35,047 nt of DNA from a virus (Duplodnaviria > Heunggongvirae > Uroviricota > Caudoviricetes): positions 1-35,047 of the IMG/VR virus record IMGVR_UViG_2534682060_000007; one strand, given 5' to 3'. This document shows positions 12,546-15,976 of the stretch, one piece after another. Both the position numbers and the translations under genes were made by a program. The notes under the pieces are model-generated. The model made no database searches, was not told where the DNA came from, and worked only from the letters and a program-made list of their open reading frames with translations. The first letter of the stretch is position 1; every line of letters starts with the position of its first letter.

Positions 12546-13487
12546 TTAACTAACAATCCAGTCCATAGCAATAACATCCTCTGGAGCTAAATCAATAGCA
12601 TGGATTTTCCCGTCACGGATGGTGCGCCAGTGCTTTCGTGATCCACCTTCGGGCCACACCCATATACCTTCAGGCCAGGAAGAACGACGACACACTGTTG
12701 CGTATCCAGTCCTGATCTTCTCTCTGACGGTATGTAGTGACAGATTATCCTTTGGGCTTTCAGGCACAGGATGGTGGATTGCCTGAAACATCCCCATCTT
12801 TGGATGATACCAGCGTTTATTGCGTGGTTCTGCCTCCGACATCACCTGCTTAAAGGCTTTCCGGAAGGGGGCCAGGGCCACAATGGAGCGTCGCGCAAGC
12901 AAACCATCTGGAGTTAAAAACTCATGCGTATCGGTGGGAATCCGGAAAGCGTTAACCAGGTTGCGACATTTGGCTTCAGTCAGGCCACATTTCGCCGCCA
13001 GCTGGCGGTAGCCAATGTAGCCTTCCGGAATATTGCCTTTCTTTATTTGCTCGAGTGTTTCAGCGACCATCGATACTTGTGCTGATACCTCGGCTACCTG
13101 GGCATTTACGGCGTTGATCCGGCGTTCATGCTCAAGATGCATTTGCGCCATTTCAGCCAGAATTTCGGCTTTTGATTTTAACTGTACCCGGGCATTCTCC
13201 AGTTCGCGCCAGCGGTCCACCAGCCGGGCGGTGAATTCCGGAGAGAGCTGCGCGACGACAATGATGCTGTCTCGTTTTCCTTGTTCGCCTTCAAAGATGT
13301 AAGCCTTGGAAAATCGACGAGGGCCAACTGATTGTTTATTTTCAATTTCCACAGATTGTGGAAATTGGATCACACTCTTTTTAGCCAGTGTTTCGATAGT
13401 TCTCTTCACACTATCTGGGCGACTTCCTACCAGTTCCGCGATCTCAATACTGGTCATTGTCGCTTTTTGAGAGATGGACAGATTCAT
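12546..13487 (-). CDS. phage antirepressor (Rha/Ant-like)
   Basis: N-terminal TSIEIAELVGSRPDSVKRTIETL resembles the Rha-family regulatory N-domain; 313 aa; start overlaps stop of upstream small ORF. Confidence 0.7.
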   Translation of the reverse strand: MNLSISQKATMTSIEIAELVGSRPDSVKRTIETLAKKSVIQFPQSVEIENKQSVGPRRFSKAYIFEGEQGKRDSIIVVAQLSPEFTARLVDRWRELENARVQLKSKAEILAEMAQMHLEHERRINAVNAQVAEVSAQVSMVAETLEQIKKGNIPEGYIGYRQLAAKCGLTEAKCRNLVNAFRIPTDTHEFLTPDGLLARRSIVALAPFRKAFKQVMSEAEPRNKRWYHPKMGMFQAIHHPVPESPKDNLSLHTVREKIRTGYATVCRRSSWPEGIWVWPEGGSRKHWRTIRDGKIHAIDLAPEDVIAMDWIVS

Positions 13488-13702
13488 CAGTGCACCTCCA
13501 CGCAGTTCATTGGCAGATTCCAGTAATTGAGGATCTCCATCGCATCAAGAGTGAAGCGAGCAGCAAAAATGCAGGGTTCTTCGGGAAGGTATGAGCGCGC
13601 TTCTGCTTCGGTTGCAGCCATGACGCAGATATACAGGTGTTTTTGGCAGGAATAGAAACGCCAGATAAATTCAGAATGAGTTGGGGTAGGGGTAGTAGCC
13701 AT
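13487..13702 (-). CDS. small protein translationally coupled to antirepressor (in the position of P1 icd)
   Basis: 71-aa ORF with strong AAGGAGG RBS; stop overlaps antirepressor start. Confidence 0.55.
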   Translation of the reverse strand: MATTPTPTHSEFIWRFYSCQKHLYICVMAATEAEARSYLPEEPCIFAARFTLDAMEILNYWNLPMNCVEVH

Positions 13703-13885
13703 AATGGCAGCCTCCTTTTGCTAATTTAAGGAGCTACCGCGTGAGGTTCCAATCTCAATGGCGGTAGCACTGACTGGGTTGGAACTACCGGCGCAAAAGG
13801 GAACCGGCCTGCCTTTCGGCAGCCCAGCCAGCACTACCATTGATCTCTGAGCTAAACGCTACGTATGGCTGTGCGATGGCATGAC
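13703..13885 (-). ncRNA. candidate structured leader / antisense-type regulatory RNA upstream of the antirepressor operon
   Basis: Several inverted repeats: 13733-13740/13761-13768 (8 bp), 13763-13778/13823-13838 (16 bp, perfect only with G-U pairs in the minus-strand transcript), GNRA hairpin near 13806-13821. Confidence 0.3.
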
Positions 13886-13887
13886 AC

Positions 13888-13910
13888 AAAAAAAGACGCT
13901 TTCGGCGTCT
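13888..13910 (-). terminator. Rho-independent terminator (minus strand)
   Basis: Hairpin agacgc/gcgtct followed on the minus strand by a 7-U run. Confidence 0.5.
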
Positions 13911-14014
13911 GTGTCGCCTTTTGCATTATCCGGGGTTCCAATCCCGGCACCCGTTTTTCTAAGGTGCCGTAGAAATATACCCCACGATAATGCCAGGGCG
14001 CAACAGTCAGTATT

Positions 14015-14182
14015 TTATGCTTTGGCGGATTTCTTCCGGGCTTGCTTGCAGGCGTAGGCCATTGCTTTAGCTTTCACTTCATCCAGCTTCCCGGTGATCA
14101 CTTCTTTTCCGAGAGTGACAAACCAGTCATAGCAACCGCCAGTGATGTTCTGGATTTGAAAGTTGAGGTAGCGAACGGTCAT
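14015..14182 (-). CDS. small hypothetical protein (55 aa)
   Basis: ATG at 14182 with GGGGGTG RBS; translation MTVRYLNFQIQNITGGCYDWFVTLGKEVITGKLDEVKAKAMAYACKQARKKSAKA; not in ORF table. Confidence 0.4.
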   Translation of the reverse strand: MTVRYLNFQIQNITGGCYDWFVTLGKEVITGKLDEVKAKAMAYACKQARKKSAKA

Positions 14183-14500
14183 TTTGACACCCCCAGCGCG
14201 AGTAAAGAATGCAGATTATCGCGTGAGTGGCGGACAACGAGTGATGGGAAAAGACAGTAGCTGTTCATAGTGTAGTGACTCCTTGCTTTCGGAGCCGCCA
14301 TCGACTGTTCCACGGTCTGGTGGCGGCGCAATAAAGGCTGGAACACCGTGAGTCAACGGGGGCTTTTCAGCCACCTATATTGCACCGCCATTGGTATGGC
14401 GGCGGCAATCATACGAAAAACTAAATAGTTTGTCTCAAAAAGTTGACCGGTGTGCCAATCGGTAGTGAATGTACATCGGAGCATTTTTCAATTCAACTTA

Positions 14501-14519
14501 AAATGTTAGAAAACTAATT
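14501..14519. promoter_or_regulatory. recurring motif site 2 (AATGTTAGAAAACTAATT)
   Basis: Direct sequence match to the recurring motif; overlaps the stop codon of the 14514-15092 gene. Confidence 0.35.
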
Positions 14520-15092
14520 TATCAATTCAATCGCCATCTGATACAACGCCATTTCATCGGCATTGTGCCGTATGAAATCTGCTTTTCCGCCTATTTTTCC
14601 ATCAGCATGAACAGGGACCAGCCAGGGATATTGTTCTCGGACCTCGGCTGGCGCTGCGTACTGGTGGTGCCATTTACACAAAGGGAGGACATATTTATGC
14701 GCGTTCTCTGCCGTTCTCCCGAAGATATGGTGCAGGGATACCACTGGGCTATGTTGCCCGTGAATATGGCAGGCAATGCAGGGGAGAGTACCGATAGCGG
14801 TCTGTATCCGGCGTTCATCGGCTGTGAGTGATCTGCCCTTCAGGCCGCGTGACGTGCGTGTTTTTTTGGACGGAGCGGATACAGCTTTCTCTTTTCTCCG
14901 CTGGTCATATTGCTTTGCTTTTTCAATTCTCTTTTGCCGATATTCAGGCGATGCGGCTTTTTCTCTCGCTCGCTGCTGCTGGCGTTGAGCTTGTTGAAGG
15001 CGCTTTGCCCTTTGTTCCTCTCGCCAGGCCGGGTCAGCCAATCTTTGCATGGCTTTTTGTCTCTGTTTCTCCCAGTAGCTCTGTTTCTGCAT
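14514..15092 (-). CDS. HNH-nuclease-domain protein (NinG/YbcO-like) with K/R-rich coiled-coil N-terminus
   Basis: C-terminal CIAC...LHHIFGRTAENAHKYVLPLCKWHH fits the C-x2-C / HH / N / H HNH pattern. Confidence 0.55.
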   Translation of the reverse strand: MQKQSYWEKQRQKAMQRLADPAWREEQRAKRLQQAQRQQQRAREKAASPEYRQKRIEKAKQYDQRRKEKAVSAPSKKTRTSRGLKGRSLTADERRIQTAIGTLPCIACHIHGQHSPVVSLHHIFGRTAENAHKYVLPLCKWHHQYAAPAEVREQYPWLVPVHADGKIGGKADFIRHNADEMALYQMAIELIN

Positions 15093-15174: not shown

Positions 15175-15364
15175 ACATTAATATCATTCCTGATAACTGT
15201 TTGGAGGACATGATGCTTATAGCTTTAAGTGCGATCCACCAGCCATCTGTGAATGAGATTGGCCTGTTCTATGTGTTGTTTTTCGGGGCGTTGGCGCTAC
15301 TTGAGCTTGGTATTGAGCTTTTCGCAGTGCTTATGTTTTGCGTCACGATTTTGGGGAAATTTTG

Positions 15365-15976
15365 ATGGTGAAACGTATTTTGAAAATTTACATCGCGGGG
15401 CCGATGACTGGTTATCCAGATTACAACCGTGCGGCGTTTAATGCGAAAGCGAGCGAGCTGATGGCTGAAGGGCATATCGTTCTGAATCCAGCGGTGTTAC
15501 CTGGTGGCCTTTGCCAGAGTGAATACATGGATATTTGCCTGGCAATGGTGCGTTCTGCTGATGCGATTTATTTGCTCAATCGATGGGAAGAATCGGTTGG
15601 TGCTCGTGCAGAGCACGCGCTGGCTGAAAAGCTGGGGCTGACTGTAATTTATGAGTCACCAACCAACATTGAATGCCAGGTTGCTCCGCATATTTACCGG
15701 GAACTGGTCAATGCACTGCGTGATATCGCTGCTGTATATCACGGCACAGAACAGCTTCGTGAGCGTTTAGCCCATACCATTTCCTATTACCTTTCTTTAT
15801 CTCATGAGCACAAGCTCCGCCAGAAGGTAATGATCAAATTTATCATGAGGTTATCGAAATCCCTGGCAAACGCCGATCCAAAGAATCCATTACCGAAAGA
15901 GGCAATGAATTACCTGAAGTCCTGCAACGTTGTTTCTGAAGATGGCGTTCTTTTGGTTAGAAGGAGTTCTGCGTGA
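15365..15976 (+). CDS. DUF4406-like protein (nucleoside 2-deoxyribosyltransferase-like fold) with C-terminal extension
   Basis: IYIAGPMTGYPDYNRAAF motif typical of DUF4406 / N-deoxyribosyltransferase-like proteins; start at ATG 15365. Confidence 0.6.
   Translation: MVKRILKIYIAGPMTGYPDYNRAAFNAKASELMAEGHIVLNPAVLPGGLCQSEYMDICLAMVRSADAIYLLNRWEESVGARAEHALAEKLGLTVIYESPTNIECQVAPHIYRELVNALRDIAAVYHGTEQLRERLAHTISYYLSLSHEHKLRQKVMIKFIMRLSKSLANADPKNPLPKEAMNYLKSCNVVSEDGVLLVRRSSA

Follow-up and report, generated by a model that had tools for sequence, protein, structure and literature searches.

The window, i.e. the whole stretch of 35,047 nucleotides that was analysed, comes from a D6-like, P1-related phage-plasmid of E. 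coli. Its minus strand carries a leader RNA, a C4 antisense RNA gene and two overlapping protein-coding genes, and the ORFs are intact within the window. From upstream to downstream, the features are as follows.

13974-14003, minus strand: putative sigma-70 promoter of the leader, proposed from the sequence
13889-13967, minus strand: leader RNA of the isrK / c4-a1b1 type, 79 nt (Rfam isrK RF01394; consensus fold of nine variants)
13884-13910, minus strand: intrinsic terminator of the leader, stem-loop 13910-13894 and U-run (terminator scan; Rfam isrK alignment)
13757-13844, minus strand: C4 antisense RNA gene, Rfam model span (RF01695, 76.7 bits, E 1.7e-13)
13487-13702, minus strand: icd homologue, 71 aa (tblastn to P1 Icd; NCBIfam; PHROG)
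12546-13487, minus strand: antirepressor gene (ant), 313 aa, with a Rha/Roi-type N-terminal domain (PHROG 63; identity to D6 orf82)

The sequence-only reading had described a 71-aa ORF with a strong ribosome-binding site, whose stop codon overlaps the start of a Rha/Ant-like antirepressor gene. The Shine-Dalgarno sequence (AAGGAGG, 13717-13711) and the overlap were both found. The TGA of the first gene and the ATG of the second share one base (TGATG) at 13487, so that ant would be coupled in translation to icd, and the Shine-Dalgarno sequence of ant itself (GGAGG) lies inside the 3' end of icd. The 71-aa ORF showed 62.7% identity to P1 Icd (tblastn, E 3e-18), 49.5 bits against the NCBIfam model phage_ICD_like (cut-off 25) and an E value of 1.2e-40 against PHROG 1426. 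In the case of the 313-aa protein, the antirepressor assignment was upheld by PHROG 63, 'anti-repressor Ant' (E 1.4e-60), and was narrowed to the Rha/Roi type. The protein is 85% identical to D6 orf82 and, over residues 1-146, 52% identical to Roi/antirepressors of Stx phages; its score against Pfam Phage_pRha was 26.2 bits, under the GA of 29.9. Homology to P1 Ant1 was rejected (BLASTP E 0.32). The 313-aa protein would act as an antirepressor, on a target suggested by its family annotation. In a plasmid of 99.8% identity, PGAP marks ant as partial.

Between the terminator tail (13889) and the ATG of icd (13702) there are 186 nt, close to the approximately 180 nt of non-coding leader described before. 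This region contains the C4 gene. The match to RF01695 covers model positions 1-87 of 87 and reaches 76.7 bits against a gathering score of 45, which is more than P1 c4 (68.8) or P7 c4 (69.6) obtains with the same model. A C4 match was located about 55 nt upstream of icd in all Icd-selected loci with enough upstream DNA, and the C4 sequence is identical in 26 loci. The minimum free energy fold is the family consensus, a three-way junction made of a long outer stem and two hairpins. The minus strand folds at -46.4 kcal/mol (z = -5.46; none of 200 shuffles was as good) and the plus strand at -32 kcal/mol (z = -1.38), so the structure is strand-specific. The outer stem is the 16-bp helix 13823-13838 / 13763-13778 that had been noticed earlier, with its three wobble pairs (U.G, G.U, G.U) that become A.C/C.A mismatches on the other strand. 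The GNRA-looped hairpin (CUGCC-GAAA-GGCAG) proved to be C4 hairpin 1. G-CCA (13762-13759) comes directly after the outer stem and resembles a tRNA 3' end.

The helices of C4 were compared in 19 distinct sequences. In total, 92.6% of the cells were paired and 20 of the 27 pairs changed on both sides. The covariation score of 0.640 compares with 0.233 in shuffles (0/500 reached the observed value) and at most 0.20 with slid partners, and it is biased toward the structure because the alignment was fitted to the model. The C4 assignment made by the sequence-only reading therefore held in the covariance-model search, in the folding of the minus-strand leader and in the comparative alignment, where both helices and target sites covary across loci. 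Based on alignment with the annotated 77-nt c4 of P1, the mature C4 is predicted to span about 13838-13760 (79 nt).

The elements described earlier on the minus strand were all present at the positions given. The proposed extent (12546-13912) ended too early on the upstream side, since the element continues there with the 79-nt leader RNA 13889-13967. The leader consists of hairpin 1, hairpin 2, a single-stranded segment and an intrinsic terminator. It scored 62.5 bits over the full length of isrK RF01394 (GA 50) and 22.4 bits against c4-a1b1 RF03163, below the GA of 46.7 but for the same element. The leaders of P1 and P7 behave in the opposite way, with c4-a1b1 above GA and isrK below GA. The consensus fold of nine leader variants contains two compensatory pairs. 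The terminator seen previously was confirmed: its stem, 13910-13894, reads AGACGCCGAAAGCGTCT and precedes a T-run (terminator scan positive). It turned out to be the 3' end of the isrK/c4-a1b1 leader RNA, which carries the putative decoy sites.

The putative promoter is composed of a -35 element TTGCGC (14003-13998), an 18-nt spacer and a -10 element TATATT (13979-13974), with a predicted start at G13967. All leader variants have a -10-like hexamer (TATATT, TATGCT, TATCCT or TACACT; TATAGT in P1), and its spacing from the leader 5' end is constant. A simple promoter scan gave no call on the leader promoter, because it matches 8 of the 12 consensus positions, and by consensus it would be weak.

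The 7-8-bp alternative pairings reported earlier correspond to two sets of complementarities, a'/a1/a2 (7 nt) and b'/b1/b2 (8 nt), at the following positions.

13935-13941, minus strand: a1, UUGGAAC, loop of leader hairpin 2, complement of a' (complementarity; leader consensus fold)
13917-13924, minus strand: b1, GCAAAAGG, single-stranded, just 5' of the terminator, complement of b' (complementarity; leader consensus fold)
13793-13800, minus strand: b', CCUUUUGC, loop of C4 hairpin 2 (complementarity; fold; allele comparison)
13779-13785, minus strand: a', GUUCCAA, unpaired junction 3' of C4 hairpin 2 (complementarity; fold; allele comparison)
13746-13752, minus strand: a2, UUGGAAC, 4 nt past the 3' end of the C4 model (complementarity; allele comparison)
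13711-13721, minus strand: b2, GCAAAAGG at 13721-13714, overlapping the icd Shine-Dalgarno sequence at 13717-13711 (complementarity)

All four target sites (a1, b1, a2, b2) are exact in the window. The a' segment (13785-13779) pairs with a2 (13752-13746) at 7/7 positions, and b' (13800-13793) pairs with b2 (13721-13714) at 8/8. The chance of finding both sites together, estimated with 200,000 shuffles, is 1e-5 for the leader and 5e-6 for the RBS region. Comparison of the loci revealed six different a' and six different b' alleles, which occur in 11 combinations (specificity types). With its own leader and with its own RBS region, every cognate C4 forms duplexes of 7 bp and 8 bp, in one type by means of G.U wobbles, and non-cognate C4/target pairs fail unless an allele is common to both. 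All four cognate sites are kept in 89 of the 90 Icd-selected loci, which represent 11 a'/b' types. The exception, L036, has a non-cognate a1, so matching at a1 is not absolute. The b2 site overlaps the Shine-Dalgarno sequence in every variant, and the same target logic was present in the lambdoid phages F039 (annotated isrK and C4) and phiP27. In the 5' region of icd, a hairpin sequestering the Shine-Dalgarno sequence was not supported; the fold was no better than that of shuffles (z -0.94).

Site for site, the order of elements, a1-b1-c4-a2-b2-icd-ant, is the one given in the curated P1 record. The resemblance of the locus to P1 immI is one of homology and not just of layout, and with RF01695 matched at full length, homology to Icd and the P1 element order, the immI-like module proposed by the sequence-only reading was borne out. 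We conclude that 12546-13967 (minus strand) is, with high probability, a P1-type immI (c4-icd-ant) anti-immunity operon under the control of C4 antisense RNA. In P1, C4 is processed by RNase P, and there is also Rho-dependent polarity. According to the notes of the curated P1 record, translation of icd-ant is repressed by binding at a2/b2, and ant is not expressed without icd.

The operon may work in the following way. Transcription would start at about G13967 and the leader RNA of the isrK/c4-a1b1 type would be made first. Most transcripts would probably stop at the intrinsic terminator of the leader, and those that read through would carry C4, icd and ant. By analogy with P1, C4 would be excised from the read-through RNA with an RNase P 5' end at about G13838 and a 3' end near the tRNA-like GCCA at about 13760, giving a stable three-way-junction RNA of about 79 nt. 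Its exposed b' (hairpin-2 loop) and a' (junction) would pair in trans with b2 and a2 on the icd-ant mRNA. Icd would then remain untranslated because b2 overlaps the icd Shine-Dalgarno sequence, and Ant would not be made because ant starts at the icd stop codon. As a result, the main repressor of the prophage would remain active. The leader copies a1/b1 could pair with C4 in cis, while both are still part of the precursor, or in trans, if the leader is released as a free small RNA. In the minimum free energy fold of the full leader, a1/b1 are paired in cis with a'/b', an arrangement equivalent to 'structure A' of Gifsy-1 (PMC4825925). In this manner the leader would titrate C4 and allow icd-ant translation, as was experimentally shown for IsrK in Gifsy-1.

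It is also conceivable that C4 acts mainly on transcription, like the CI RNA of P4, with occlusion of the Shine-Dalgarno sequence being secondary and C4 exerting negative feedback on read-through. C4 bound to the nascent a1/b1 would favour the leader terminator, and/or C4 bound to a2/b2 would cause premature termination. The folds of some leaders agree with this. For the window/D6 allele, the terminator pairs of the free leader have a mean probability of only 0.25, because GGCG beside b1 pairs with the 5' arm of the terminator; masking of b1 raised it to 0.98, and the P1 and P7 leaders were switched likewise toward the terminator. Read-through in Gifsy-1 increased 8-fold with IsrK in trans, and a CI-like role for STnc1160 was raised by the authors of that study (PMC4825925). 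On the other hand, 5 of the 10 leader variants (L007, L009, L035, F039 and phiP27) need no masking to form the terminator at P >= 0.95, so the switch is not conserved; the alleles of the window, D6, P1 and P7 are predicted to have it, L032 in part, and the five other variants are not. The position of b2 over the Shine-Dalgarno sequence in every variant points to translational control, and in Gifsy-1 the effect on translation (140-fold) was far above that on transcription (PMC4825925). A mainly transcriptional role of C4 is therefore improbable. A conserved anti-terminator/terminator switch driven by C4 on b1 is no more than a hypothesis, being predicted in only about half of the variants.

Even less probable is that the 39-aa ORF at 13721-13840 is a real translated leader peptide and that the region is a coding upstream ORF and not an RNA gene. 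This ORF reaches 33 bits against Pfam Phage_ASH (GA 26), is annotated by RefSeq in near-identical plasmids and is analogous to 'orf45' of Gifsy-1, whose SPA-tagged product was detected and whose start codon mattered for anrP expression (PMC4825925). No NCBIfam HMM matched it, though, and the region varies as an RNA does, with compensatory changes in stems and with loop changes matched by distant target sites. In protein terms these allele changes are drastic replacements, e.g. Cys to Asp at b'. In P1, the corresponding frame stops inside b' (TAA within CACTAAC), and in the window the ORF ends 19 nt before icd and is coupled to nothing. With the frame unconserved in P1 and variation of the RNA type, we judged this 'ash'/orf45-like ORF very unlikely to be a real gene. 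The notion that the inverted repeats arose by chance or have decayed, and play no part in regulation of this element today, for which the PGAP partial flag on ant could be cited, is scarcely credible in view of the intact ORFs, the identical C4 in 26 loci, the four exact target sites with a joint chance of about 1e-5 x 5e-6, and a covariance-model score above that of P1's own c4.

The module under C4 control is already known and has been described for P1/P7, Gifsy-1 (isrK-orf45-anrP) and D6-like plasmids. With P1/P7 immI the window shares the order of elements, the Rfam C4 family, the three-way junction that presents b' in the loop of hairpin 2 and a' at the junction itself, a b2 site located at the ribosome-binding site of icd, a homologous Icd, and an antirepressor start overlapping the icd stop. 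It differs in that its leader scores as isrK and those of P1/P7 as c4-a1b1 (Rfam), and in that it has one Rha/Roi-type antirepressor unrelated to Ant1/Ant2. A P1-type C1 operator (ATTGCTCTAATAAATTT-like) was not found anywhere in the window with up to 3 mismatches; D6-type operators may differ. The a'/b' sequences are predicted to define immunity specificity, and the pair in the window, GUUCCAA / CCUUUUGC, differs from the pairs of D6, P1 and P7, which predicts a specificity different from that of P1/P7.

D6 and D6-like plasmid prophages (e.g. pYU39_89) have the same genome type and locus, at 94% nucleotide identity, and an identical b' allele. In these plasmids c4, icd, an antirepressor and a second c4-icd region have already been noted (PMC6799933). 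In spite of about 94% identity between the window and D6, a' is GUCUCAA in D6 and GUUCCAA in the window, and a1 and a2 are changed to match. These matched differences suggest partial heteroimmunity.

The isrK-C4 units of Gifsy-1 and of Stx/lambdoid phages likewise have an isrK-family leader, then a processed RNA of about 80 nt, and then a Rha-type antirepressor, the processing being known from Gifsy-1. Barquist 2013 already names the Gifsy-1/lambdoid arrangement an IsrK-C4 system. In Gifsy-1 the read-through transcript is the source of the processed RNA of about 80 nt (STnc1160), downstream translation increases 140-fold when IsrK is provided in trans, and compensatory mutations back the pairing between leader and downstream RNA (PMC4825925); activation there needs translation of the upstream ORF. 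A role of isrK as a short Hfq-binding sRNA that activates downstream translation in trans is known only for Gifsy-1 (PMC4825925). The lambdoid versions lack icd, and b2 therefore lies at the Shine-Dalgarno sequence of the regulator gene itself, whereas in the window a P1-like icd is interposed. The P4 CI RNA with seqA/seqC and the N15 CB RNA-antA system also have a small RNA processed from the leader of the operon under its control, and sites complementary to this RNA lie on either side of it, upstream and downstream. P4 CI differs in acting by premature transcription termination on replication genes, while in the window the downstream site covers the Shine-Dalgarno sequence and a leader termination switch is predicted for only some alleles of the family.

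If the operon works as proposed, C4-type RNAs decide antirepressor synthesis and thereby whether or not the plasmid prophage stays quiescent, and the short a'/b' sequences determine which related phages are able to activate one another and which are not. The a'/b' sequences co-evolve with the partner sites, of which there are three sets, and all of them reassort among E. coli phage-plasmids. The established picture from P1, P7 and Gifsy-1 is left unchanged. The importance lies mainly in a clean comparative confirmation and in annotation, as a protein-coding call, the RefSeq 'ash family protein' CDS, is placed over the C4 gene.

A P7-like C4 copy, accompanied by an icd and a Rha gene of its own, was observed at about 48-49 kb of the complete plasmid, and a second, shorter, leaderless C4-like RNA, previously unannotated, was observed immediately upstream of the locus at 14316-14395 (minus strand). 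With three C4-type RNAs that differ in their a'/b' alleles, and with a leader terminator switch that may depend on C4, the phage-plasmid might have more than a duplicate of P1 immI here, namely a multi-channel RNA immunity network in which alleles reassort by recombination and each RNA feeds back on its own synthesis; we offer this tentatively. Relatives of the short module were sought in the phage collection and none but D6 itself was found. No relative of a solved structure was found for the 55-aa ORF of this module or for the 313-aa Ant. The a'/b' sequences of the RNA at 14316-14395 match a site 3 nt downstream and the Shine-Dalgarno sequence of a 29-aa ORF, which is coupled to the 55-aa ORF of no assigned function.

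Across the whole 35-kb window, the Rfam library identified two RNA genes at the gathering threshold, both on the minus strand. They precede a 71-aa and a 313-aa ORF. The segments of C4 exposed for pairing, a' and b', were located by alignment to P1 C4, and exact complements of both are present in the leader (a1, b1) and downstream of C4 (a2, b2). In shuffled sequences, the joint occurrence of an a and a b site had a frequency of 1e-5 for the leader and 5e-6 for the RBS region.

Features of the candidate antirepressor locus
13889-13967, minus: isrK (RF01394) leader RNA, 62.5 bits, threshold 50
13941-13935, minus: a1, exact complement of a', loop of leader hairpin 2
13924-13917, minus: b1, exact complement of b', single-stranded, immediately before the terminator
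13910-13894, minus: terminator stem, followed by a T-run, 3' end of the isrK-type RNA
13757-13844, minus: C4 antisense RNA (RF01695), 76.7 bits, threshold 45, full model length
13800-13793, minus: b' CCUUUUGC, C4 hairpin-2 loop
13785-13779, minus: a' GUUCCAA, unpaired C4 junction
13752-13746, minus: a2, exact complement of a'
13721-13714, minus: b2, exact complement of b', overlaps the icd SD
13487-13702, minus: 71-aa ORF, icd homologue by its protein matches, SD AAGGAGG
12546-13487, minus: 313-aa ORF, candidate antirepressor, next after the 71-aa ORF; its ATG and the upstream TGA share one base

The sequence-only reading had described an immI-like antirepressor module with a structured leader, and every one of its structural details is real. 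Its 16-bp helix (13823-13838 with 13763-13778) is the C4 outer stem, three wobble pairs included; its hairpin with a GNRA loop is C4 hairpin 1 (GAAA), and its terminator is the one that ends the isrK-type RNA. The Rfam search that it had proposed returned C4, and the minus-strand RNA was predicted to fold at -46.4 kcal/mol (z = -5.46), whereas the fold of the opposite strand was weaker (-32 kcal/mol, z = -1.38).

The window segment shares 99.8% identity with E. coli plasmids of ~92 kb and 94% with phage D6, a P1-related plasmid prophage. The 71-aa ORF encodes an Icd homologue, with 62.7% identity to P1 Icd (E 3e-18) and matches to NCBIfam phage_ICD_like (49.5 bits) and PHROG 1426. The 313-aa protein has a match in PHROG 63 ('anti-repressor Ant', E 1.4e-60), and its N-terminal half is similar to the Roi/Rha regulators of Stx phages. 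No homology to P1 Ant1 was detected (E 0.32), and the match to Pfam Rha was under threshold. The cassette for control is thus a homologue of P1 immI that carries another cargo gene. A distinct family, PHROG 7385, is matched by residues 254-312, and most relatives end near residue 237. The overall appearance is that of a Rha-type antirepressor carrying an additional C-terminal module. In a near-identical (99.8%) plasmid, PGAP calls the 12546-13487 gene a 237-codon pseudogene ('missing C-terminus'); in both the window and D6, however, the reading frame stays open for 313 codons.

The curated P1 record annotates a1, b1, c4, a2, b2, icd and ant and notes that icd-ant translation is repressed by C4 binding at a2/b2. 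The a' segments of D6, P1 and P7 each differ from that of the window; b' differs in P1 and P7 and is the same in D6. In all three, the partner sites are altered to match their own a' and b'. The window and D6 are otherwise near-identical, yet a', a1 and a2 differ together.

For a wider comparison, 86 loci were gathered by Icd protein homology, so that their selection was independent of the RNA, and searched with a covariance model made from four C4 sequences. C4 was found ~55 nt upstream of icd in every locus with sufficient upstream DNA. Among the 19 distinct aligned C4 sequences, 92.6% of helix cells were paired, and both-sided changes occurred in 20 of the 27 pairs. The covariation score, for a C4 alignment fitted to the model, was 0.640, compared with 0.233 in shuffles (0/500 reached the observed value) and at most 0.20 with slid partners. 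Six a' and six b' alleles were found in eleven combinations. In every type, the cognate C4 forms 7-bp and 8-bp duplexes both with the leader and with the RBS region of the same locus. One type relies on G.U wobbles for this, a pairing that is meaningful only for RNA. Non-cognate pairs of C4 and targets fail, except where an allele is shared. When all loci were counted, the four cognate sites were kept in 89 of 90. Absence of covariation or of conservation in homologous loci, which the sequence-only reading had named as grounds against itself, was therefore not what we found. These data demonstrate membership of the family, together with the fold, the complementarity and the co-evolution.

The sole exception, L036:1720-1946 (IMGVR_UViG_2778261639_000014), has a D6-type a1 (UUGAGAC) with a window-type a' (GUUCCAA), while b1, a2 and b2 match. 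This locus has probably arisen by recombination, and its mismatch suggests that pairing at a1 can be dispensed with. Five loci (L088, L090, L007, L067 and L077) have mixed alleles relative to the window, D6, P1 and P7, among them P1 a' combined with P7 b', P7 a' combined with P1 b', and each of the two D6-type a' alleles with each of the two b' alleles. Matching target sites always accompany them, a pattern that resembles the reassortment of immunity specificity as modules.

The leaders of P1 and P7 pass the threshold of c4-a1b1 (RF03163) and miss that of isrK, whereas those of the window and D6 show the reverse; thus, the two Rfam families describe one element. In the annotation of Stx2 phage F039, 'C4 antisense RNA' comes next after 'isrK Hfq binding RNA'. 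F039 and phiP27 carry matched a'/a1/a2 and b'/b1/b2 sites, as in the window; both lack icd, and a Rha-family gene comes right after C4. For the full 278-nt 5' region, the MFE structure pairs a1/b1 with a'/b' in cis, and in the centroid C4 is folded independently. This alternative equals 'structure A / structure B', shown experimentally for isrK-orf45-anrP of the Salmonella prophage Gifsy-1 (PMC4825925). There, short IsrK supplied in trans raised downstream translation 140-fold, the pairing was backed by compensatory mutations, and an ~80-nt RNA (STnc1160) was processed from the read-through transcript (PMC4825925). Going by position, the Gifsy-1 base pairs G28/C162 and G31/C159 would lie in a1 and a', which in F039 span +26 to +32 and +160 to +166, respectively.

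The P1 mechanism most likely applies here. We infer C4 processing, the effect in vivo and the target of the antirepressor. C4 would be processed from the operon transcript and then pair with a2/b2, covering the icd SD, so that neither icd nor the coupled antirepressor would be translated; the leader a1/b1 would act as a decoy in cis, and also when the leader is a free sRNA. An additional, P4-like effect on transcription termination is possible: masking of b1 flips the predicted fold from anti-terminator to terminator in the window, D6, P1 and P7 leaders, whereas five other leader variants are predicted to form the terminator regardless.

According to the reference lists of PMC8546580 and the review PMC12197685, c4 of P1 and P7 is a classic system. 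The c4 and c4-a1b1 motifs were defined by Weinberg 2010, an explicit 'IsrK-C4 immunity system' common to P4, P1, P7, N15 and Salmonella lambdoid prophages was described by Barquist 2013, and a D6-like plasmid prophage with c4, icd, an antirepressor and a second c4-icd region by Silva 2019. The locus therefore belongs to a known system, correctly recognised from the sequence. In the literature consulted, no prior account was found for its specific pairing of a' and b' alleles and for some of the additional findings.

A second, shorter C4-like RNA was observed at 14316-14395 (minus strand; 43.5 bits with the R1 model, a covariance model built in this analysis); the copy in D6 reaches 40.2 bits with Rfam, under the gathering threshold of 45. 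It folds at -36.2 kcal/mol (z = -4.46) and is without an a1/b1 leader, with a promoter-like site (14436-14408) just upstream. Its junction a' (UGUUCCA) matches UGGAACA (14305-14311), 3 nt downstream, and its hairpin-2 loop (UGACUC) matches GAGUCA (~14275-14283) in the SD of a 29-aa ORF (14179-14268). The stop of this ORF and the start of the next, a 55-aa ORF (14015-14182; PHROG 7786, function unassigned), overlap as ATGA. The short RNA is present in 27 D6-type loci (L005-L031 except L008, where the upstream DNA is absent, plus D6), and within the phage collection in D6 only. A third C4 (71.9 bits) lies outside the window, on a complete near-identical plasmid (L094:1975-3160, i.e., NZ_CP116996.1 47975-49160). 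It combines the a' of P7 (CUGCUAA) with a new b' allele, and its cassette has a c4-a1b1-type leader (52.2 bits), its own icd-like gene and a 235-aa Rha-family gene. Thus, three C4-type RNAs of different specificity are found on one phage-plasmid.

In the window, directly upstream of these elements and as in P1, is a gene for a Ref-like RecA-dependent nuclease (14514-15092, minus; Pfam RecA_dep_nuc, E 1.3e-34), separated from the short C4-like RNA by a terminator-like hairpin (14460-14445). A divergent DUF4406/nucleoside 2-deoxyribosyltransferase-like gene (15338-15976, plus) lies on the same side.

RefSeq/PGAP places a 39-aa 'ash family protein' CDS (13721-13840, minus) wholly over the C4 gene and its a2 site. 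This ORF, the analogue of Gifsy-1 'orf45', matches Pfam Phage_ASH (33 bits, gathering threshold 26) and none of the NCBIfam HMMs; in P1 its frame is closed by a stop inside b'. It may be, therefore, that the ash family in part represents C4/CI-type RNA genes read as protein.

The Rha-type genes right after C4 begin with MATIPA in F039 (L091:1763) and MATVPT in phiP27 (L092:1745). The window Icd (start 13702) has this N-terminus too (MATTPTP), and its SD lies in an identical context, AAGGAGGCUGCCAUUAUGGCUAC. From these sequences, the mobile control cassette seems to extend over the RBS and a few initial codons.
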